The translations under genes were made by a program, and so were the position numbers. Shown here piece after piece: positions 903 through 57,908 of a stretch of 64,000 nucleotides of DNA. Under the pieces are notes generated by a model. The model was given only the letters and a program-made list of their open reading frames with translations. It did not search any database and had not been told where the DNA came from. This DNA is from Escherichia phage GEP001, in sequence record PV173775; one strand, written 5' to 3'. The first letter of the stretch is position 1; every line of letters begins with the position of its first letter.

Positions 903-2359
903 TTCTTAAAATTCTGAATGAAATAGCATCTATTGGATCAACTAAGCAGAAGCAAGCAATTCTTGAAAAGAATAAAGATAATGAATTGCTTAAACGAGTA
1001 TATCGTCTGACTTATTCTCGTGGGTTACAGTATTATATCAAGAAATGGCCTAAACCTGGTATTGCTACCCAGAGTTTTGGAATGCTGACTATTACCGATA
1101 TGCTTGACTTCATTGAATTCACGTTAGCTACTCGGAAATTGACTGGAAATGCAGCAATTGAGGAATTAACTGGATATATCACTGACGGTAAAAAGGATGA
1201 TGTTGAAGTTTTACGTCGAGTTATGATGCGAGACCTTGAATGCGGTGCTTCAGTATCTATTGCAAACAAAGTTTGGCCAGGTTTAATTCCTGAACAACCT
1301 CAAATGCTGGCAAGTTCTTATGATGAAAAAGGCATTAGTAAGAATATCAAGTTTCCAGCTTTTGCGCAGTTAAAAGCAGATGGAGCTCGGTGTTTTGCTG
1401 AAGTTAGAGGTGATGAATTAGATGATGTTCGTCTTTTATCACGAGCTGGCAATGAATATCTAGGATTAGATCTTCTTAAGGAAGAGTTAATCAAAATGAC
1501 TGCTGAAGCCCGCCAGATTCATCCAGAAGGTGTGTTAATTGATGGCGAATTGGTATACCATGAGCAAGTTGAAAAGGAACCAGAAGGCCTAGATTTTCTT
1601 TTTGATGCTCCTGAAATCAGTAAAGCTAAAGAGTTTGCCGAAGTAGCTGAATCTCGTACTGCTTCTAATGGAATCGCCAATAAATCTTTAAAGGGAACTA
1701 TTTCAGAAAAAGAAGCCAAATGCATGAAGTTTCAGGTCTGGGATTATGTTCCGTTGGTAGAAATATACGGTCTTCCGGCGTTTCGTTTAAAATATGATGT
1801 ACGTTTTTCTAAACTAGAACAAATGACATCAGGATATGATAAAGTAATTTTAATTGAAAACCAGCTAGTAAATAACCTAGATGAAGCTAAGGTAATTTAT
1901 AAAAAGTATATTGACCAAGGTCTTGAAGGTATTATTCTCAAAAATACCGATGGATTGTGGGAAAATGCTCGTTCAAAAAATCTCTATAAATTTAAAGAAG
2001 TAATTGATGTTGATTTAAAAATTGTAGGAATTTATCCTCACCGTAAAGACCCTACTAAAGCAGGTGGATTTATTCTTGAATCAGAGTGTGGAAAAATTAA
2101 AGTAAATGCAGGTTCAGGCTTAAAAGATAAAGCTGGTGTAAAATCACATGAACTTGACCGTACTCGCATTATGGAAAACCAAAATTATTATATTGGAAAA
2201 ATTCTAGAGTGCGAATGCAACGGTTGGTTAAAATCTGATGGCCGCACTGATTACGTTAAATTATTTCTTCCGATTGCGATTCGTTTACGTGAAGATAAAA
2301 CTAAAGCTAATACATTCGAGGATGTATTTGGTGATTTTCATGAGGTAACTGGTCTATGA
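899..2359 (+). CDS. 30: ATP-dependent DNA ligase (T4 gp30)
   Basis: 486 aa; N-terminus MILKILNEIASIGSTKQKQAILEKNKDNELLKRVYRL matches T4 DNA ligase as recalled; adenylation motif K-A-D-G in FAQLKADGARCF. Confidence 0.95.
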   Translation: MILKILNEIASIGSTKQKQAILEKNKDNELLKRVYRLTYSRGLQYYIKKWPKPGIATQSFGMLTITDMLDFIEFTLATRKLTGNAAIEELTGYITDGKKDDVEVLRRVMMRDLECGASVSIANKVWPGLIPEQPQMLASSYDEKGISKNIKFPAFAQLKADGARCFAEVRGDELDDVRLLSRAGNEYLGLDLLKEELIKMTAEARQIHPEGVLIDGELVYHEQVEKEPEGLDFLFDAPEISKAKEFAEVAESRTASNGIANKSLKGTISEKEAKCMKFQVWDYVPLVEIYGLPAFRLKYDVRFSKLEQMTSGYDKVILIENQLVNNLDEAKVIYKKYIDQGLEGIILKNTDGLWENARSKNLYKFKEVIDVDLKIVGIYPHRKDPTKAGGFILESECGKIKVNAGSGLKDKAGVKSHELDRTRIMENQNYYIGKILECECNGWLKSDGRTDYVKLFLPIAIRLREDKTKANTFEDVFGDFHEVTGL

Positions 2360-2544
2360 AAGCTTACTTAGAAACAATTGTTATAGCTCAAAAAGAAGGT
2401 GGAGATGTTTCTACTTCTGTATCACAAGTCATTCTCGAATTTGTAGATGCATATGCTTATAATAAATTTACAGAAACATTTGATGCCTATGAAAAAGGGC
2501 CAAAGTTTGAAATATATCGTACTCTCTTACCATTAGATTATTAA
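2356..2544 (+). CDS. small hypothetical protein, 62 aa
   Basis: ORF overlapping ligase stop (ATGA), followed by hairpin terminator at 2543-2560; no homology recognised. Confidence 0.35.
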   Translation: MKAYLETIVIAQKEGGDVSTSVSQVILEFVDAYAYNKFTETFDAYEKGPKFEIYRTLLPLDY

Positions 2545-2560
2545 AGGCCTTCGGGCCTTT
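2543..2560 (+). terminator. hairpin terminator after ligase-region ORF
   Basis: AAAGGCC-TTCG-GGCCTTT then AATTTT. Confidence 0.5.
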
Positions 2561-2565
2561 AATTT

Positions 2566-2573
2566 TATAAATA
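2566..2573 (+). promoter_or_regulatory. T4-type late promoter TATAAATA upstream of alt copy 1
   Basis: Exact TATAAATA about 20 nt upstream of the ATG. Confidence 0.6.
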
Positions 2574-2593
2574 GAATAAACACTAGAGAGGAT

Positions 2594-4690
2594 ATGATGG
2601 AACTCATTACAGAATTATTTGACGAAGATACTACTCTTCCGATTACAAACTTAAATCCAAAGAAGAAAATACCGCAAATTTTTTCAGTTCATGTTGATGA
2701 CGCAATTGAACAACCAGGCTTTCGTTTATGTACCTATACATCTGGAGGTGATACTAACCGTGATTTAAAGATGGGCGATAAAATGATGCATATTGTTCCT
2801 TTTACATTAACTGCTAAAGGTTCAATTGCTAAATTAAAAGGTCTCGGTCCAAGCCCAATTAATTACATCAATTCAGTTTTTACTGTTGCAATGCAGACGA
2901 TGCGCCAGTATAAAATTGATGCCTGTATGCTTCGTATTCTTAAGTCTAAAACTGCTGGTCAAGCTCGACAAATTCAAGTTATTGCTGATAGACTTATCCG
3001 TAGTCGTTCAGGCGGCAGATACGTCCTTCTTAAGGAACTCTGGGATTACGATAAAAAGTATGCATATATTCTTATACATCGCAAAAATGTATCACTAGAA
3101 GACATTCCAGGAGTTCCAGAAATTAGTACCGAGCTCTTTACTAAAGTTGAATCGAAGGTCGGCGATGTTTATATCAATAAAGATACTGGAGCTCAAGTAA
3201 CTAAAAATGAGGCAATTGCAGCATCTATTGCGCAAGAAAATGATAAACGTTCTGACCAAGCTGTAATCGTTAAAGTTAAAATTTCCCGTAGAGCAATTGC
3301 ACAAAGTCAGTCATTGGAATCTTCTAGATTTGAAAGTGAATTATTCCAGAAATATGAATCTACCGCAGCTAATTTCAATAAACCTGCTACAGCTCCTTTA
3401 ATTCCCGAAGCAGAAGAAATGAAGCTTGGAATTAATTCATTAGCTTCTAAAACTAAGGCAGCAAAAATTATTGCCGAAGGAACCGCAGATGAACTTCACT
3501 ATGACTATAAATTCTTTTCAAAAAGTGATGTTAATGAAGTTTCTGAAAAAATTAAAGATGTAATTCTTAATGCGATTAAAAATGAACCAACTACTTCAAT
3601 AAAATGTTTAGAGAAGTATGCAGCAGCTATTAATAAATTCTTTGAAGAATATAAAGATACTTGGCTTGATAAACATAATAAAACTCGTAAAGGGCAGCCA
3701 GATGAAGTCTGGGAAGAAATAACTAAAAATTCCTGGAACGCAGCAAAAACTAAATTCCTCAAACGAATGATTTATAGCTTTTCTGGAATTGGTGCAGGTC
3801 CAATGATTGATATTACTATTGCCCGTGATGGTTCTAAATATACTCCATCACAAAAGCGCGGCATTAGAGAGTATTGTGGTTCAGGATATACTGACATCAA
3901 TAATCTTCTTTTGGGTCGTTACAATCCAGAACGATATGATGTAATGAGTGAAAAAGAAATTGAATCTGCGATAAATAATTTAGATTCAGCTTTTGAAAAT
4001 GGTGACCGTATACCAGAAGGCATTACAGTTTATCGTGCTCAAAGTATGACTGCTCCTATATACGAAGCGCTAGTTAAAAATAAAGTGTTCTATTTCAGAA
4101 ATTTTGTATCTACTTCTTTAACTCCTATCATTTTTGGACGTTTTGGAATTACACATGCTGGTATCGGTCTTTTAGAACCAGAAGCTCGTAATGAATTAAC
4201 AGTTGATAAAAATGAAGAAGGAATAACTATTAATCCAAACGAAATAAGAGCGTATAAAGAAAATCCTGAATACGTTAAAGTTCAAATAGGATGGGCAATT
4301 GATGGAGCTCATAAAGTTAATGTTGTATATCCAGGAAGTCTCGGAATAGCAACAGAAGCTGAAGTAATTCTACCACGCGGATTGATGGTCAAAGTTAATA
4401 AAATAACTGATGCTTCTAATAATGACGGAACAACATCTAATAATACAAAACTCATTCAAGCTGAAGTTATGACTACGGAAGAACTCACCGAATCAGTCAT
4501 TTATGACGGTGACCGTCTAATGGAAACCGGCGAAGTAGTTGCAATGACAGGTGATATTGAAATAGAAGACAGAGTTGACTTTGCATCATTTGTTTCATCA
4601 AATGTTAAACAGAAAGCAGAATCATCTCTCGGAATTATTGCGTCTTGCATAGATATTACAAACATGCCTTACAAGTTCGTTCAAGGATAA
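2594..4690 (+). CDS. alt: Alt-like NAD-protein ADP-ribosyltransferase, copy 1 (capsid-packaged)
   Basis: 698 aa; N-terminus MELITELFDEDTTLPITNL resembles T4 Alt; C-terminal R / S-T-S / E-x-E ART motifs (TVYRAQ, FVSTSL, EAEVILPRG); late promoter TATAAATA at 2566-2573; true start may be the second Met (2597). Confidence 0.85.
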   Translation: MMELITELFDEDTTLPITNLNPKKKIPQIFSVHVDDAIEQPGFRLCTYTSGGDTNRDLKMGDKMMHIVPFTLTAKGSIAKLKGLGPSPINYINSVFTVAMQTMRQYKIDACMLRILKSKTAGQARQIQVIADRLIRSRSGGRYVLLKELWDYDKKYAYILIHRKNVSLEDIPGVPEISTELFTKVESKVGDVYINKDTGAQVTKNEAIAASIAQENDKRSDQAVIVKVKISRRAIAQSQSLESSRFESELFQKYESTAANFNKPATAPLIPEAEEMKLGINSLASKTKAAKIIAEGTADELHYDYKFFSKSDVNEVSEKIKDVILNAIKNEPTTSIKCLEKYAAAINKFFEEYKDTWLDKHNKTRKGQPDEVWEEITKNSWNAAKTKFLKRMIYSFSGIGAGPMIDITIARDGSKYTPSQKRGIREYCGSGYTDINNLLLGRYNPERYDVMSEKEIESAINNLDSAFENGDRIPEGITVYRAQSMTAPIYEALVKNKVFYFRNFVSTSLTPIIFGRFGITHAGIGLLEPEARNELTVDKNEEGITINPNEIRAYKENPEYVKVQIGWAIDGAHKVNVVYPGSLGIATEAEVILPRGLMVKVNKITDASNNDGTTSNNTKLIQAEVMTTEELTESVIYDGDRLMETGEVVAMTGDIEIEDRVDFASFVSSNVKQKAESSLGIIASCIDITNMPYKFVQG

Positions 4691-8098: not shown

Positions 8099-9192
8099 TA
8101 AAAAGTCCCCGCATATAAAGAAGCACGGTTTAACGTGATAATTTCTCTCATAGTAATCTCAAGAGTAAATGTACTAGGGAGGTTTGGAGCAATAGCTAAT
8201 CCGTTAAAGTTACCATTAGGTGTTTTATCAAATCTGATGCTCTGTATTTGGCATGGGCCAAATATTTCCGTTTTTCCATCAAACTTAGATGTTGCACCAA
8301 AGTTTTTCACCATCCAAATTGTCGGGTTTGAAACTACTAGAACGTTAGTTAAACTCGATGTCATTTTCTCAAATAGTGTTTTATTTTTAGCTGCGTCTTC
8401 CGGAGATAAAGGTTCAATTAACGTAGAACGATACCAATCATCTAAATACCCCTTTATTTCAGCAGCATATTGAGATTTGCCAGTTTCACCATAAGAAAAA
8501 TAGTTAAAATATTGATAGATATTAATAATAGCCATCAAATCTTCTGTTGAACGTGGAGTCAAATCCCATGTAAACACTTTAGTTCTATTCTCAGCACCAC
8601 CATACATACTTCTGGCTGTCGTATAAATCTGTTCATTATTATCAGCCATTATACCTTGTGTTATACTTTCCAGTGCCCCAAATACTGCAGTTGAAGCAAT
8701 ATTACTTAGCACACCAGTAGCAGTACCTCCGCCTCTGCTGATAAGACTTTCTTGAACATCATTAAATCTATGTGATGATGTATCAACATCAGATTTAGAT
8801 CTCGGTAAAAGAATGTTTGCGACAGGGGCTTTACTTATTGTTCCTGAATTATTATCTGATATTAATCCATTTGACAGTTTTGATACTGTATTACTGATAG
8901 TGTTTCTGGCTGTACGTAAAATACTCGAAGATGAAGAAGAGTAGTTAGATCTCATCGATCTAAGACTTCCAGAATCCCTAGATGACATATTGTATGCAGT
9001 AAATAATAATCCATTCTTATATAGATCTGTTACCTGGAAGTCCCCTGTAGTGTCATTACCACTAGCACGCCCAGTTGGAAACTGGGCAGTGTATGTTTTA
9101 GTTGCTACTTCTGATTTAGTACTCTGTCCGGCTGAAATTTTCTCACCGGACTTTTTAATTAAATCAGCAGTTATTTCTTTAACAATTGCCAT
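8098..9192 (-). CDS. 48: baseplate tail-tube cap (T4 gp48)
   Basis: 364 aa, same as T4 gp48; synteny 54-48-29. Confidence 0.85.
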   Translation of the reverse strand: MAIVKEITADLIKKSGEKISAGQSTKSEVATKTYTAQFPTGRASGNDTTGDFQVTDLYKNGLLFTAYNMSSRDSGSLRSMRSNYSSSSSSILRTARNTISNTVSKLSNGLISDNNSGTISKAPVANILLPRSKSDVDTSSHRFNDVQESLISRGGGTATGVLSNIASTAVFGALESITQGIMADNNEQIYTTARSMYGGAENRTKVFTWDLTPRSTEDLMAIINIYQYFNYFSYGETGKSQYAAEIKGYLDDWYRSTLIEPLSPEDAAKNKTLFEKMTSSLTNVLVVSNPTIWMVKNFGATSKFDGKTEIFGPCQIQSIRFDKTPNGNFNGLAIAPNLPSTFTLEITMREIITLNRASLYAGTF

Positions 9193-9200
9193 ATTATTCC

Positions 9201-10973
9201 TTAATTAACTCCTGTCGCGTCAAATACACCGGGAGCAGTTGTACTCGTAACAGGTGTCATATTATGAACGACAGTATTTTTCTTAATAACATTATTAGTA
9301 TTATTGATCGAAGGAGATGCTTGTTGAACAGGAGCTTGTTGTGCTTTGTTCTTTTCTATTACCTGGACTTGTTTTGCTTCTGGCGATTTAGCAGAAGTTT
9401 CAGGTTTGGCATTAGGCTGATTTTTCTTGAGCTCTTGATAAGTAGCATCAATTTTAGAAAATCTAGCAGCAAGTTCTTTTTTAACTGCCGGTGAATTATT
9501 TAAATCCGGGTCATCCATCCGTTTTTTAAGGTCTTCATAGGCAGCTTCAACTGATTTAACTGTTGAGTCTTTACTCATGTCAGCTGAATCAGCATATTTT
9601 TCAAAGCGAATCATCGCGGCGCGCGCTTCATTAGCCTTCATTAAAGCATTTTTTCTTTCTTCAGGTGAAAGTTGCTTTAATTTTTCTTCTTCTGCTGCAC
9701 GTTCTTCGTCGGTAGTTAGTGCTTCTTTATTATCAACTCCACGAATCCAGTTAGATGCACGAGTTTTCCAATTAGCAATTTTATCTAATCCTTTTGCTAT
9801 CGGACCAAGGTCTCCGTTCATTCGTTTATCTTGATAATTTGCAACTTTTTCCTGGTCTTCTTTATTGAGAGATGCTCCAGTAGAATTTTGGAAATTTTCT
9901 AGTGCTCTTCCTTCTACTTCATCAGCGGTATCCTTCATGCCAGGAATGACTCGAAGAATTGCAGCAGATAATTTAGCCATTCCAAGCTGAATAAGTTCTC
10001 CTAAATTATAAAGAACCTTTCCAAGCCCTTCTACAATAGCTACCGTCAAACCGCCCCAATCTCCCTCTTCCCAGAATTTTTTAATTTCATCAATAGAACT
10101 AAAGATGCTCTGTAATAAAGGACCCCATGTTCCGGTTTCGCTAGAGAATTTAGTAAAGTTTGAACTAAACAAATCCCAAGCCTGCGAAAATTTATCTGAC
10201 CAATATTTAAAGTGAACCATCAGCAGATCTATTCCAACAACAACAGCCAATATCATTGCAGTCATTTTAGCGGCTTCAATAGCAGCACTGACGGTGTACT
10301 TAAATAACATGCTTGATATTTTATCAGTAATTGAAATGGACTTCTTAAATCCAAAATCAACAGTCTTCGTTAATTTATCTAAAGCTTGAGATAATTTTAA
10401 GTTAAATGCGTCTTTTTTCTGTTTTTCTTCTGGTGATTCTTGTTTGGGTTCAACTGGCTGAGGGGTAGGGAAAAAATCAGCATCAGGATCATTATTAACT
10501 GCTTCAGGAGCCGGTAATAAAGGACCCACAGATTCAGCTGTATCATCCTCAACAACTTTAACAGGAATAGCGCTTTCAACCGTGGCTAAACTGGTTCCTG
10601 TTTGTTGAATTCCAGCTGTCTGAATTTTTTGCTCTAGTAAACTTGTTAATTTATCTAATTTGCTCCCGAGTGATTCACCGATTTCTTTATTAATATTGTT
10701 GCCAATTTCAACAGTTTCAGCAATTAACTCAGAACCGGCAGTAGTATCACTCACTGCGTTTTCTACGTTGTCAATTGCTCCAATTATTTCATTCGATTTT
10801 TCTTCGACAGTTTGAGCAATTAATTCAGAAGCAGCTTGAGCATCATCCAATTTCGTAGATATATCGTTAAGTCCAGATAAAGTGTTAGAAGCGGATTTAG
10901 CCGCTTCCTGTGTTGGTTTATTATCTGAAATAACTTTTCTACGCATCGTTTGCATTTCTTGTGGCTTTTTCAT
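9201..10973 (-). CDS. 29: baseplate hub / tail length determinator (T4 gp29)
   Basis: 590 aa, same as T4 gp29; synteny. Confidence 0.85.
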   Translation of the reverse strand: MKKPQEMQTMRRKVISDNKPTQEAAKSASNTLSGLNDISTKLDDAQAASELIAQTVEEKSNEIIGAIDNVENAVSDTTAGSELIAETVEIGNNINKEIGESLGSKLDKLTSLLEQKIQTAGIQQTGTSLATVESAIPVKVVEDDTAESVGPLLPAPEAVNNDPDADFFPTPQPVEPKQESPEEKQKKDAFNLKLSQALDKLTKTVDFGFKKSISITDKISSMLFKYTVSAAIEAAKMTAMILAVVVGIDLLMVHFKYWSDKFSQAWDLFSSNFTKFSSETGTWGPLLQSIFSSIDEIKKFWEEGDWGGLTVAIVEGLGKVLYNLGELIQLGMAKLSAAILRVIPGMKDTADEVEGRALENFQNSTGASLNKEDQEKVANYQDKRMNGDLGPIAKGLDKIANWKTRASNWIRGVDNKEALTTDEERAAEEEKLKQLSPEERKNALMKANEARAAMIRFEKYADSADMSKDSTVKSVEAAYEDLKKRMDDPDLNNSPAVKKELAARFSKIDATYQELKKNQPNAKPETSAKSPEAKQVQVIEKNKAQQAPVQQASPSINNTNNVIKKNTVVHNMTPVTSTTAPGVFDATGVN

Positions 10974-20630: not shown

Positions 20631-20652
20631 AAAGGGACCGAAAGGTCCCTTT
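20631..20652. terminator. bidirectional hairpin terminator between rnlB and gene 24
   Basis: AAAGGGACC-GAAA-GGTCCCTTT then TGTTTTATT; same GGGACCGAAAGGTCCC core as the hairpin at 7110. Confidence 0.65.
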
Positions 20653-20655
20653 GTT

Positions 20656-21939
20656 TTATTCATCAACGATAATTTTTGGTAGCTTAACACCCAATAAAAC
20701 AGACAAATCTGAACGACCCGCCATTTTATCCATGTCTCCACCATCAATTATTCTTGCTTCTTTTTCATCTTTTGCTACAGTGTAAGGATTTGCAGATAAA
20801 GCATATCTAACCAATAAACCGATAGATGGCTGCAAACTTTCTGGATCAACTACAACTTTAAATGCACCTACATGTTCAGGGTCATCTAAGTCAAGACCTT
20901 CTGTATACGGAGCATAGAAAATTGATCCAACAATTTCTTTTTCGCCAATATTTTCTACCACACCGACGATTACATAATCTAATGGGCTGTTAGTATCGCA
21001 ATAAAGCGGTAAACCATTAGCTAAAAACCCGTAGGCATTTTGTGAAAGATATTTATCATCTTCTGGTTTATGTTTTAACCAACCTGATGCAGCAAGAATC
21101 GCAGCAGCACGAGCTGAAGCAACACAGAACGTTGCTGTATAAGTTGATTCTTTTTGGATATGTGAAACCATTTCACATACCATTCGGTATAATGAACGAC
21201 CAGCTTCAGGTGCAGATGCATAGCTCAAATCAATGAATCCAGTGTCAGTAATTCCTGTAACTTTATATCGTTTTGATACTGTAATCAAAGACTGTAGAAT
21301 ATCTTTATTGATTTCATCCGCCATTTCAGTTGCAAGCAAATCTTCCAAGAAATTAGGAGCATCGAATCCATTTGCTTCTAAATCTTGTGCTAATTCAACT
21401 GTGATGCCAGTTTTAAGTTTACGAGATTTAACTGCGGTTTGCCATTTATTAATCTGGAATCTAGCATCCGCAATTTCGCTATCAGAGCTTTCAAATTTGC
21501 TCGTTGACGCTGCGTCAGAAAATAGACGAACCTTTAAAAGAACAATTGCAATCTGAAGAGCTAATTCTAAATCGCTTTCTTCAATAGTAGCAAATGGTGT
21601 ATCTTCTAATACTTTATAGACGATATTATTGTATTTGAATAAATCGCCTTTATTGAGAGTTAATTTAGACTCTTCTGTTAATTCTGTGATTTGTTCTCGG
21701 TCTACATATCCAGCTTCGCCAGCGTAAGTAGCACCAGTTTTAAATGTAAATTCGTTATCTGGATTAAGGTATTTGATACCATAAAAAGCAGCAACAGGTT
21801 GATTAGTTCTTTGCGTTGCTACAATGTCAGAATATATTAATTTAGTGGTAGCGCGAGTCAAAGCAACGAGATTTGGGCGACCGATTGAGTTGCTATTCGT
21901 TGTGGTTGATTCGCGCAGAAGTTCGTTGATTTTAGCCAT
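20656..21939 (-). CDS. 24: capsid vertex protein (T4 gp24)
   Basis: 427 aa as T4 gp24; late promoter at 21968-21975. Confidence 0.9.
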   Translation of the reverse strand: MAKINELLRESTTTNSNSIGRPNLVALTRATTKLIYSDIVATQRTNQPVAAFYGIKYLNPDNEFTFKTGATYAGEAGYVDREQITELTEESKLTLNKGDLFKYNNIVYKVLEDTPFATIEESDLELALQIAIVLLKVRLFSDAASTSKFESSDSEIADARFQINKWQTAVKSRKLKTGITVELAQDLEANGFDAPNFLEDLLATEMADEINKDILQSLITVSKRYKVTGITDTGFIDLSYASAPEAGRSLYRMVCEMVSHIQKESTYTATFCVASARAAAILAASGWLKHKPEDDKYLSQNAYGFLANGLPLYCDTNSPLDYVIVGVVENIGEKEIVGSIFYAPYTEGLDLDDPEHVGAFKVVVDPESLQPSIGLLVRYALSANPYTVAKDEKEARIIDGGDMDKMAGRSDLSVLLGVKLPKIIVDE

Positions 21940-21967
21940 TGCGCTTTCCTTGTTGAGAGTATATGTT

Positions 21968-21975
21968 TATTTATA
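21968..21975 (-). promoter_or_regulatory. late promoter for gene 24
   Basis: TATAAATA on minus strand about 30 nt upstream of gene 24 start. Confidence 0.6.
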
Positions 21976-21983
21976 AAAGTTGT

Positions 21984-22012
21984 TTACAGCAAGGTTATCA
22001 CATGTTACTATA
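21984..22012 (+). promoter_or_regulatory. sigma70-type early promoter for the 88-aa ORF between genes 24 and 23
   Basis: AAAGTTGTTTACA with -35 TTTACA, 17 nt spacer, -10 TACTAT. Confidence 0.6.
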
Positions 22013-22041
22013 GACCTATCAAAAACATGAGGAGATTAAAA

Positions 22042-22308
22042 ATGAACAAGTTAAACTTTATTCGTACTACTCTGTCCGCTCTTGATAAAGACATCAAAGC
22101 CCTGGTAGAAAAATATGGTTCCAATCCTAACGGTAATGCAGTGAATGCCCTAGTTAAGAAATATGAAACCATGGCTTATGCTACTGACTTCTGGTGGAAC
22201 GGTGAATATTCTACCCATACCAAAGACAAATCTGGTAACTGGCTGAAAATCCAAGAAAATCGTATTGACTTCCGTGACATCATCAACCGTCGAGTTAAGA
22301 TTGCGTAG
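22042..22308 (+). CDS. hypothetical early protein, 88 aa (cassette between genes 24 and 23)
   Basis: ATG at 22042 with SD GAGGA (track ORF starts 22027); early promoter 21984-22012; hairpin 22322-22343; opposite strand to flanking late genes. Confidence 0.55.
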   Translation: MNKLNFIRTTLSALDKDIKALVEKYGSNPNGNAVNALVKKYETMAYATDFWWNGEYSTHTKDKSGNWLKIQENRIDFRDIINRRVKIA

Positions 22309-22321
22309 TATAGAAACAAGA

Positions 22322-22343
22322 ATGGGAGACCGAAGTCTCCCAT
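22322..22343. terminator. bidirectional hairpin between the 88-aa ORF and gene 23
   Basis: ATGGGAGAC-CGAAG-TCTCCCAT between convergent gene ends. Confidence 0.6.
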
Positions 22344-22357
22344 AATAAGGTTATATC

Positions 22358-23923
22358 TTAGATACCTTTAACATATACACGGCGGAAGTAAGCGTTTTTA
22401 CCAAGGCTATTCAGAATAGAAGGCATACCGCTCTGGATGCGAGAAGCCGGAGCCTGAGCAGCGGATTCTGCAAATGGGTTGATACCGATACCGTAACGAG
22501 TTTTGAATCCCATTACTGGTTGGAAGTTCTTCGGATCAGAACCACGCAGCGGAGTCAGAGCTACATATGGAGCATAGTAAATACCAGCATCCATTTCGTT
22601 CGGACCTTTATAACCTACAGTGAAATAATCCTGTTTAGCATACTGGTCGATATATACACGGTATTTACCACCCAGAACACCAGCAAATACTGACTTGGTA
22701 GTATCAGTGTTAAAGCCGGTAGCCAGACCCTGTGCAGCATAAGAAATGCCAGTATCAACTGAAGCCAGAACGTTAACTACGTTACGGGAAGCGATAATGA
22801 AGTTACCTTCACCACGACCGGTCTGACGAGCAATTTCAACTGCTTCTTTGTCAATCTGGAACAACAGAGCTTTAAAGGATTCACCCGCCCAGCGAGCACC
22901 ACGAATATCAATCGGATCCTGGAAGTCAAATACACCAGCTTTAGAACCCGGAGTCAGGGTCATACCAGATTTACCAACCTGAGCTGAGTAGTTAATCCAA
23001 TCAACAACTTCACGGTTGATTTCCAGCATGATTTCGGTAGCCAGAATACCAGACAGTTCAGCATCAGCATCCATACCGTGAACAGCGCGGAGGTCTTGTG
23101 CTAATTCGATAGAGTAAGCAGCTTTCAGCTGACGAGATTTAGCTTCGATAACTTGTTTATCGATACGGAAGCCCATTTCATTCCATGGGTTATCGGTAGA
23201 ACCGTTGAAACCTTCCTGGAGTTCAGCGATAGAAGTAGCCATACCTTCAGCGATTTCTACCAATGCACCAGCTTCCATTTGTTTCTTAATTTCAGCATCT
23301 AATTTAGCTGCATCAGTTGCGCTTGCACTAATTGTTACTTGAGCAGAAGCCTGCAGATACACAGTACCAGTGTCCTGGAAGAAGTGAGTATAGATATCAC
23401 CTACTGTGGTTTCTGTGCTAGCAGCCAGAGCCGGGAATTTCTTAGCAGCGCCCTGACCAGAGAACATTGCATCTGGACCATACATTGGGTGGAATGCTTC
23501 TTTAGCGCCGGCAGCGATTGGGTCTTTACCATATACTGCGCGCAGTGCGAATACCTGACCGGTCGGGCTGTTCATCGGCTGAACACCGCAAATATCGAAA
23601 GCAATCAGGTTAGGAATAGCACGACGTACCATACCCATAACAGCTGGGCCAATCTGAGTTACTGCGCCAGAAGTCTGACCAGCAGCGATGTTAGTAGCGT
23701 TGTAACCGTGGTCACCACCGATTTCAGCTTCTGTTAAGAAAGAACCGAATGCCTGAGCAATTTTTTCGTCTTTGTACTCTGGAGCTGTCTGGAAATCTTT
23801 TTCCTGGTTTTCAAAGATTTTAGCGATAATCGCTTGTTTGCTATTAGCAATTTCCGGTAAACCTTCACCTTCCAGTAATGGCTTCCATTTGTTCAAAAGT
23901 TCAGCTTTAGTTTTGATAGTCAT
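22358..23923 (-). CDS. 23: major capsid protein (T4 gp23)
   Basis: 521 aa; N-terminus MTIKTKAELLNKWKPLLEGEGLPEIANSKQAIIAKIFENQ matches T4 gp23 as recalled. Confidence 0.95.
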   Translation of the reverse strand: MTIKTKAELLNKWKPLLEGEGLPEIANSKQAIIAKIFENQEKDFQTAPEYKDEKIAQAFGSFLTEAEIGGDHGYNATNIAAGQTSGAVTQIGPAVMGMVRRAIPNLIAFDICGVQPMNSPTGQVFALRAVYGKDPIAAGAKEAFHPMYGPDAMFSGQGAAKKFPALAASTETTVGDIYTHFFQDTGTVYLQASAQVTISASATDAAKLDAEIKKQMEAGALVEIAEGMATSIAELQEGFNGSTDNPWNEMGFRIDKQVIEAKSRQLKAAYSIELAQDLRAVHGMDADAELSGILATEIMLEINREVVDWINYSAQVGKSGMTLTPGSKAGVFDFQDPIDIRGARWAGESFKALLFQIDKEAVEIARQTGRGEGNFIIASRNVVNVLASVDTGISYAAQGLATGFNTDTTKSVFAGVLGGKYRVYIDQYAKQDYFTVGYKGPNEMDAGIYYAPYVALTPLRGSDPKNFQPVMGFKTRYGIGINPFAESAAQAPASRIQSGMPSILNSLGKNAYFRRVYVKGI

Positions 23924-54326: not shown

Positions 54327-54355
54327 TTTACACGCTGATGAGGTAGTGATACTAT
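54327..54355 (+). promoter_or_regulatory. early promoter for ipI
   Basis: TTTCACAAAGTTGTTTACA...TGATACTAT; -35 TTTACA, 17 nt spacer, -10 TACTAT. Confidence 0.65.
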
Positions 54356-54673: not shown

Positions 54674-54693
54674 TAAATATTTCACAAAGTTGT

Positions 54694-54722
54694 TTACATA
54701 GGGTTTTAGTTGTGATACTATT
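54694..54722 (+). promoter_or_regulatory. early promoter for the 61-aa membrane protein gene
   Basis: The same 19-nt TTTCACAAAGTTGTTTACA as the ipI promoter, then -10 TACTAT after 17 nt. Confidence 0.65.
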
Positions 54723-57878: not shown

Positions 57879-57908
57879 TTTACATCCCTGTTCTTCCATG
57901 GTACTATA
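57879..57908 (+). promoter_or_regulatory. early promoter with A/T-rich UP element
   Basis: TTTTTCACAAAACTGTTTACA, -10 TACTAT; upstream A/T tract. Confidence 0.55.

Follow-up and report, generated by a model that had tools for sequence, protein, structure and literature searches.

The gap between the capsid genes 24 and 23 of Escherichia phage GEP001 (PV173775) very probably carries an accessory early gene that sits in an insulated slot, bounded by the gene 23 terminator and the gene 24 late promoter, and that arrived by allelic replacement from another genus. The window analysed here is a 64,000-nt stretch of this genome, and the features of the locus are collected in Table 1. Positions 21900-22400 match Escherichia phage vB_EcoM-G28, a Tequatrovirus, at 100% identity; by this match, the phage of the window is a vB_EcoM-G28-type Tequatrovirus of the G28 clade. 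The original prediction described a small ORF, a promoter, a Shine-Dalgarno sequence (SD), and a hairpin in the gap. All are present, and its coordinates and sequence quotations proved correct. The ORF lies on the plus strand and both flanking genes on the minus strand, as described, and the sequence supports an early-type, separately promoted gene antisense to the late genes 23 and 24.

Table 1. Features of the gene 24-23 region in the window, from left to right.
Feature	Position	Strand	Basis
Gene 24, capsid vertex protein (left flank)	20656..21939	-	427-aa ORF; G28 annotation; T4-type allele
Recombinant JS98-like tract, whole 23-24 intergenic region	21950..22357		392/406 = 96.6% identity to JS98
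Late promoter of gene 24, T4-type, TATAAATA	21968..21975	-	exact motif, 29 nt upstream of the gene 24 ATG
Predicted sigma70/T4-early-type promoter, TTTACA-17-TG-n-TACTAT	21983..22011	+	match to T4/PST consensus
Shine-Dalgarno AGGAG	22030..22034	+	from sequence; 7 nt upstream of ATG 22042
88-aa ORF, PHROG 6003	22042..22308	+	ATG 22042, TAG 22306-22308; profile match, dN/dS, structure model
Predicted intrinsic terminator of gene 23, ATGGGAGAC-CGAA-GTCTCCCAT	22322..22343	-	perfect 9-bp stem, UUCG loop, U-tract, covariation
Gene 23, major capsid protein (right flank)	22358..23923	-	521-aa ORF; annotation; T4-type allele

The ORF belongs to PHROG 6003, a family of unknown function, which it matches over its full length (E = 7.2e-50, profile positions 1-88 of 90), and it is already annotated as hypothetical in many genomes. 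A tblastn search finds a homolog in 237 phage records, always as a single copy per record; the coverage of residues 1-72 given for IME08-type copies is an alignment artefact, as the IME08 ORF is full length. Eight synonymous differences and one non-synonymous difference separate the ORF from its JS98 counterpart (dN/dS 0.03), and dN/dS is 0.13 against VR26 and 0.21 against JS09. The family match, the number of records, the synonymous bias of the substitutions, and a confident AlphaFold model together argue that the ORF is a genuine gene on which purifying selection acts. Another ATG in the same frame, at 22027, was rejected as the start; it lacks an SD and is thrown out of frame in 310Ecol104PP by a 1-nt deletion, which supports 22042. 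The 54-55-aa ORFs on the minus strand of the region were likewise rejected, as the substitution pattern fits the plus-strand frame.

Orthologs include JS98 orf173 (EpJS98_gp173), IME08 orf166, VR26 gp250/VR7ORF190c, and JS09_0270, which is annotated as RB69ORF188c-like. The protein is 99% identical to JS98 orf173 and 34-65% identical to the other orthologs (37% to JS09), and 16 columns of the family alignment are invariant, an NGNA motif among them. At least four genera and one unrelated phage keep length and frame over a range of 30%-98% identity. This unrelated phage is the Vequintavirinae phage ABPH49, where a distant homolog (34% identity) lies among small hypothetical genes, flanked by GNRA-loop hairpins; genes 23 and 24 are not its neighbours there. 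The PHROG 6003 orthologs of JS98, IME08, VR26, and JS09 share length, slot, and antisense orientation with the ORF, but the carrier here is a Tequatrovirus, a genus in which the slot is normally empty or holds segD. In three other genera, the ORF regularly occupies this very slot, and the idea of a novel ORF shuttled between genomes does not fit it.

The ORF encodes a 10.3-kDa, basic (pI 9.6), hydrophilic, soluble protein without cysteine. An AlphaFold2 model (mean pLDDT 84) places helices at residues 3-25, 31-48, and 77-87 and a loop or short beta region between helices 2 and 3; the predicted fold is a generic three-helix bundle. The best-conserved stretch, EKYG-x3-NGNA-x-N, falls at the turn that joins helices 1 and 2. 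The earlier description of the product as lacking a recognisable motif holds across sequence-profile and fold searches. Pfam gave only a sub-threshold match to DUF5380 (E = 0.09), NCBIfam and PADLOC gave only noise, a profile search of PDB sequences returned nothing below E = 0.1, and Foldseek returned nothing below E = 1.7 against the PDB and one family member only against BFVD. No GIY-YIG domain was matched in Pfam or NCBIfam, and the sequence is unrelated to the SegD proteins of T4 and IME08. A profile HMM searched against 1.84 billion representative proteins recovered only ~7 true family members. The long repeat proteins P0017 and P0020 were dismissed as spurious, their scores being the sum of many weak repeat matches, and P0021 is the product of a chimeric contig that holds an exact fragment of the ORF. 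A search of the literature on orf173 and RB69ORF188c found no report on this gene and no transcript, protein, or phenotype data. Very tentatively, the product might, early in infection, bind a macromolecule of the host or the phage, in host take-over or counter-defence.

Upstream of the ORF, the early promoter is composed of a -35 element (TTTACA, 21983-21988), a 17-nt spacer, a TG, and a -10 element (TACTAT, 22006-22011). TTTACW-N17-TAYWAT is the early-promoter consensus for the T4/PST pair (PMC4122927), and the ORF promoter fits it exactly. Four matches to this consensus occur in the 64-kb window against 0.23 expected, a count reached by none of 100 shuffles; all four lie on the plus strand, each 29-32 nt before the start of a plus-strand ORF. 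The sigma70-type promoter (TTTACA-17-TACTAT) and strong SD (AGGAG) of the original prediction were both found, the SD within a leader of ~24 nt. Ahead of the -35 element lies an AT-rich stretch, TATTTATAAAAG. The gene 24 late promoter is arranged back-to-back with the early promoter, and its plus-strand reading forms the AT-rich region before the -35; the fPS-2 annotation also marks this late motif as a late promoter.

The early promoter motif is found at the same position in JS98, IME08, JS09, and 310Ecol104PP and also before T4 segD (five phages); VR26 has no exact consensus match at the slot. The T4 segD promoter, TTTACA-17-TATTAT, is homologous to the slot promoter of this phage. Time-resolved omics of T4 place segD RNA in the early class and detect the protein from the first minutes onward (PMC9697503 supplements). 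The homology with a promoter whose RNA is early supports early expression of the ORF, and its promoter, which also fits the consensus, is probably active early in infection. A 2010 review stated that no segD-specific promoter was identifiable and that transcript levels were expected to be vanishingly low (PMC2988022). The early promoter resident in the slot may be the driver of T4 segD, which would be a simple explanation of the T4 data.

The hairpin beyond the ORF starts 13 nt past the stop codon. Its fold (~-15 kcal/mol) has z = -3.6 on the plus strand and -3.2 on the minus strand, and 0-1 of 200 shuffles were equally stable. On the minus strand, the loop is a UUCG tetraloop and the stem is followed by TCTTGTTTCT, and a terminator scan calls this strand only. 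On the plus strand, no U-tract follows the stem, the next bases being AATAAGG (AATAAGGTTA). The same scan reports the hairpin between rnlB and gene 24 (20631-20652) on both strands. Ten of the ten T4-type phages examined, those with empty slots included, have a hairpin and T-run just downstream of gene 23. Its loop is UUCG in nine of them, and VR26 has a different stem with a 5-nt loop. The stem of JS98, IME08, and JS09 is identical to the one here, and three stem versions are seen (GGGAGAC/GTCTCCC, GGGACC/GGTCCC, and GGGAACC/GGTTCCC). Five of the nine pairs have changed in both partners and none in just one partner; the covariation score observed was reached by none of 500 shuffles, and slid registers give no covariation.

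Nolan et al. predicted a terminator downstream of gene 23 in six of the six genomes that they compared (PMC1524935). In Rfam, nothing scored above threshold; the one weaker hit, on the minus strand, paired the hairpin with the terminator end of the PhrS model. By its conservation, the hairpin is the predicted terminator of gene 23. Two parts of the original prediction are not borne out here. The hairpin was thought to end transcripts from both directions, but the U-tract and the scan call are on the minus strand only. It was also counted as part of the early cassette, a role that was rejected because the hairpin is a conserved gene 23 terminator, found in T4 and in slots that are empty.

Across T4-type phages, the gene 23-24 gap exists in four states: empty, ORF, ORF with segD, and segD alone. 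Most Tequatroviruses (Shfl2, fPS-2, RB10, RB33, KAW1E185, and others) have an empty gap of 83 bp made up of the late promoter, 14 bp, and the hairpin. An ORF ortholog occupies the same place and orientation in Dhakavirus JS98, Gaprivervirus VR26, Mosigvirus JS09, and two metagenomic T4-likes, and Dhakavirus IME08 has the ORF and then segD 4 nt later. T4 has segD alone; the original prediction correctly placed segD at about this position, and it likewise lies on the opposite strand to the capsid genes. The Tequatrovirus rows in a spread sample of 1053 matching records comprise ~25 empty slots, 3 with segD, and 1 with the ORF. The ORF is found in only ~8 Tequatrovirus records (G28, EP01, KIT06, HZ_ZJUN4, JE01, W143, Ec2-ASingh, and 310Ecol104PP), and in 310Ecol104PP it is broken and frameshifted by a 10-bp deletion and a 10-bp duplication.

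The empty-slot phages (Shfl2, fPS-2, RB10, RB33, and others) have flanks 98% identical to the window. The original prediction had named absence or disruption of the ORF in near-identical genomes as evidence against an early cassette. Both were found, the slot being empty in most relatives and the 310Ecol104PP copy frameshifted, but the cassette stands, because absence and disruption in relatives are what an accessory cassette predicts. The empty slots of most close relatives and the disrupted copy also suggest, with low confidence, that the ORF may be dispensable for laboratory growth.

Identity to other phages switches abruptly at the borders of the gap. Gene 24 is 96.6% identical to T4 and 68.6% to JS98 at the nucleotide level, and gene 23 is 97.2% identical to T4 and 80.6% to JS98. 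The JS98-like tract between them (~410 bp) holds the gene 24 5' UTR with its late promoter, the early promoter, the ORF, the JS98-type hairpin, and the spacer to the gene 23 stop. It is largely unalignable to T4, where segD fills most of the space; only the stretch from promoter to ATG and the hairpin can be aligned. The left switch falls at ~21936-21951, in a shared 16-mer around the gene 24 start codon, and the right switch at ~22358-22388, at the stop codon of gene 23. Identity to the nearest donor sampled reaches only ~95-97%. Because the tract is JS98-like and the flanking genes are T4-like, the tract is best read from these identities as an allelic import across genera, of Dhakavirus-like origin. 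Vertical inheritance in this genome is excluded by the identity discontinuity. The claim of an acquired module is borne out for this genome, given a Tequatrovirus slot that is usually empty or filled by segD and a tract whose affinity differs from that of its flanks.

An alternative is that the unit moved as a canonical PeSL cassette, that is, as a promoter-ORF-stem-loop unit transferred through PeSL repeats and possibly excised as a mini-circle. A PeSL is defined by a stem-loop just upstream of an AT-rich region, -35, -10, SD, and ATG (PMC2839356; PMC4122927, Fig. 3 legend), and in PeSL modules two tandem PeSLs flank the cargo and recombination occurs within the elements (PMC2839356, PMC4122927). 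The locus has the promoter features of this definition: a promoter that fits the T4/PST PeSL consensus, an AT-rich region upstream, and an SD and start codon at the 3' end. Its size of ~350-400 bp resembles the ORF210 mini-circles. T4 and this phage also carry different cargo between a shared promoter, SD, and ATG and a shared hairpin, the pattern left by exchange anchored in regulatory elements.

No stem-loop was called between the end of gene 24 at 21939 and the -35, a space taken up by the gene 24 5' UTR and late promoter; the only hairpin, on the far side, is the gene 23 terminator. No second tandem PeSL is present either, as downstream of the ORF there is only this hairpin and then the convergent gene 23, with no plus-strand promoter. 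The JS98-like tract (21950-22357) extends past the promoter and the hairpin on both sides, to the gene 24 start and the gene 23 stop, which places the crossovers in the conserved gene ends rather than in repeats formed by promoters or stem-loops. Among T4-type phages, the gene occurs in one slot only, in one copy per genome, with no sign of hopping. Transfer as a canonical PeSL cassette is, on this balance, unlikely. The proposal of a PeSL-type shuttle unit survives in its promoter half, but the upstream stem-loop, the tandem partner, and junctions within the element are missing.

The locus resembles the PeSL systems of Arbiol et al. (2010, PMC2839356) and Comeau et al. (2014, PMC4122927) in its early promoter, in a small ORF that varies among close relatives, and in insulation by a stem-loop. 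It differs in that the stem-loop is downstream and belongs to gene 23 and in that the locus is part of the conserved structural core, not of a hyperplastic region. Judged by its sequence features, the ORF unit would work like a PeSL module, with its own promoter and insulation, but is outside the class by the published definition. Over longer times, the homologous promoter, SD, ATG position, and hairpin of T4 segD favour regulatory elements as anchors of exchange.

Homing could have driven the import instead, if a Dhakavirus-type donor with ORF and segD, as in IME08, cut the slot, co-conversion copied the intergenic region, and segD was then lost or left out. Tandem ORF and segD alleles do exist, the place of segD is exactly between the stop codon of the ORF and the TATAGAAACAAGA that precedes the hairpin, and homing typically leaves a short conversion tract that ends at the flanking genes. 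Nuclease genes reportedly lie at boundaries of genetic exchange between phages (PMC10448857). Against this, the window holds no segD remnant, and the ORF-hairpin junction is identical to that of the segD-less JS98 allele. SegD would be a putative agent of such a cut, and T4 general recombination needs only short homology patches and no nuclease (PMC2839356). A homing-driven import is decidedly unlikely on these grounds. The T4 segD locus is like the present one in slot, antisense orientation, homologous promoter, SD and ATG position, and UUCG hairpin, and its RNA is early; it is unlike it in cargo, a 223-aa GIY-YIG nuclease (a free-standing homing endonuclease) that is unrelated to the 88-aa helical protein.

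The family has kept its antisense place between the capsid genes in at least four T4-type genera while diverging to ~35% identity, and this might reflect a function tied to the capsid, although such a function is improbable enough to be held only at the margin; the possibility that the slot promoter drives T4 segD is separate from it. The Lit protease is triggered by the Gol region of gp23. One example of such a function might be an early factor to mask or forestall host defences that the major capsid protein sets off, and a control on antisense transcription over the gene 23 3' end might be another. A capsid-related role of the family is not required by an accessory gene in an insulated slot. 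Least probable of all, and very remote, is an RNA element with incidental coding, in which early antisense transcription over the gene 23 3' end regulates capsid expression or terminator use: read-through into gene 23 antisense is plausible with no plus-strand U-tract, and promoter and hairpin are better conserved across genera than the ORF (the JS09 stem is identical, its protein 37%), but the ORF substitutions are overwhelmingly synonymous, length and frame persist from the T4-type genera to the unrelated ABPH49, and most Tequatroviruses lack both promoter and ORF.

An imported accessory early gene in an insulated slot would work as follows. Right after infection, host sigma70 RNA polymerase would fire the ORF promoter, as for segD in T4, and the early transcript would be translated into the 10-kDa soluble basic protein. 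The hairpin would end or stabilise the early plus-strand RNA, probably weakly, because that strand has no U-tract after the stem, and some of this RNA would likely read through, antisense to gene 23, before that gene is expressed. Later, transcripts of gene 23 would stop at the hairpin and, also late in infection, gene 24 would restart from its own late promoter. With this terminator and this promoter on either side, the inserted gene should leave capsid gene expression undisturbed. The import itself would have taken place in a mixed infection, when homologous recombination used short patches of identity in the gene 24 5' end and the gene 23 3' end.

Morons of tailed phages are accessory genes that carry a promoter and a terminator of their own and sit inside a conserved operon, between two of its genes. 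The ORF is present or absent among near-identical genomes, has its own predicted promoter, and lies between adjacent conserved head genes, probably without disturbing them, all as in morons. The only structure downstream of it is the gene 23 terminator, which lacks a plus-strand U-tract, and a terminator of its own is not demonstrable. Also unlike morons, the carrier is a strictly lytic phage with no prophage expression, and the slot is occupied across genera.

The locus is a tidy case of ordinary accessory-gene exchange and no new kind of element, and such plasticity is well known. Its value lies in being a clean, fully delimited example of T4-type accessory-gene exchange across genera inside a conserved capsid module, in which recombination at very short patches of identity, located in the ends of two essential genes, probably replaced a 410-bp spacer. 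The ORF product adds one more small early protein, which becomes important only if a host target or an anti-defence role is found. The four states of the 23-24 gap make it a convenient natural system in which to measure recombination and homing between phages. The gap may also serve as a neutral landing pad, where an insert would be expressed early and capsid expression would remain untouched.

The ORF family reaches beyond T4-type phages; its only homolog outside them is in Acinetobacter phage ABPH49 (Vequintavirinae). This homolog shares 34% identity with the window protein, starts at a GTG codon, and lies among small hypothetical genes between two GC-rich GAAA-loop hairpins, AGGGCC-GAAA-GGTCCT upstream and GGCCCC-GAAA-GGGGCC downstream. 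It follows that the ORF family has moved between unrelated groups of phages. A search of representative proteins also returned a 160-aa metagenomic protein, P0021, whose C-terminal part is an exact 34-residue ORF fragment, ALVKKYETMAYATDFWWNGEYSTHTKD, joined to unrelated sequence; P0021 is most likely a chimeric assembly.

Carriers of the ORF differ in gene 24 copy number and in the integrity of the ORF itself. Two tandem copies, 24a and 24b, are present in the examined ORF-bearing Dhakavirus and Gaprivervirus phages and related metagenomic T4-likes (JS98, VR26, IME08, L010, and L011), and gene 24 is single in the window, T4, and Mosigvirus JS09. In Tequatrovirus 310Ecol104PP, the JS98-type module that the window also carries has lost 10 bp, TGGCTTATGC, and gained a 10-bp tandem duplication, GAAAATCCAA, 62 nt beyond the deletion. 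The ORF product is predicted to be cut to 64 aa; this copy may be a genuine pseudogene, or the disruption may come from the assembly.

Coordinates of the slot region, its relatives, and associated regulatory elements
Feature	Genome	Position	Strand	Remarks
ORF and segD region	IME08 (L006)	2486-3442		compared with T4 (L002) 8562-9233
Early-promoter consensus match, TTTACA-17-TATTAT	T4 (L002)	9254-9282; ~107253-107281 in NC_000866	minus	exact; TG upstream
ORF homolog locus	ABPH49 (L009)	3424-3785		
Module with deletion and duplication	310Ecol104PP (L012)	1642-1836		
Early-promoter consensus match, TG-n-TACTAT	window	54327-54355	+	exact; ORF start 54386
Early-promoter consensus match, TG-n-TACTAT	window	54693-54721	+	exact; ORF start 54750
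Early-promoter consensus match, TG-n-TACTAT	window	57879-57907	+	exact; ORF start 57939
Hairpin AAAGGGACC-GAAA-GGTCCCTTT	window	20631-20652	both	between convergent rnlB and gene 24

Regulatory elements of similar type occur elsewhere in the window. Three further matches to the T4-type early-promoter consensus, each 29-32 nt from a downstream small plus-strand ORF, are probably early promoters for a cluster of small accessory genes. The hairpin between rnlB and gene 24 is flanked by T-runs on either side, and each strand receives a terminator call, marking it as a predicted true bidirectional terminator, unlike the gene 23 hairpin.

Two accounts of segD transcription in T4 disagree. A review stated that a segD-specific promoter could not be found in T4 (2010; PMC2988022), and segD RNA belongs to the early class in T4 omics data (PMC9697503 supplements). 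The T4 segD start lies ~20 nt downstream of an exact early-promoter consensus match, a putative promoter that is, by sequence, homologous to the slot promoter of the window. This promoter may reconcile the review's missing promoter with early segD RNA.

Comparison of IME08 with T4 suggests how this arrangement could have arisen. In IME08, 4 nt separate the ORF stop codon from segD, which is inserted exactly before TATAGAAACAAGA, the sequence preceding the hairpin; T4 segD starts at the position where the ORF would begin. The T4 slot could derive from an ancestor carrying both ORF and segD, with two AAAAT(A)TGAA microhomologies as the endpoints of a deletion that removed the ORF. If so, loss of the ORF in an ancestor of T4 would have brought segD directly under the slot promoter.
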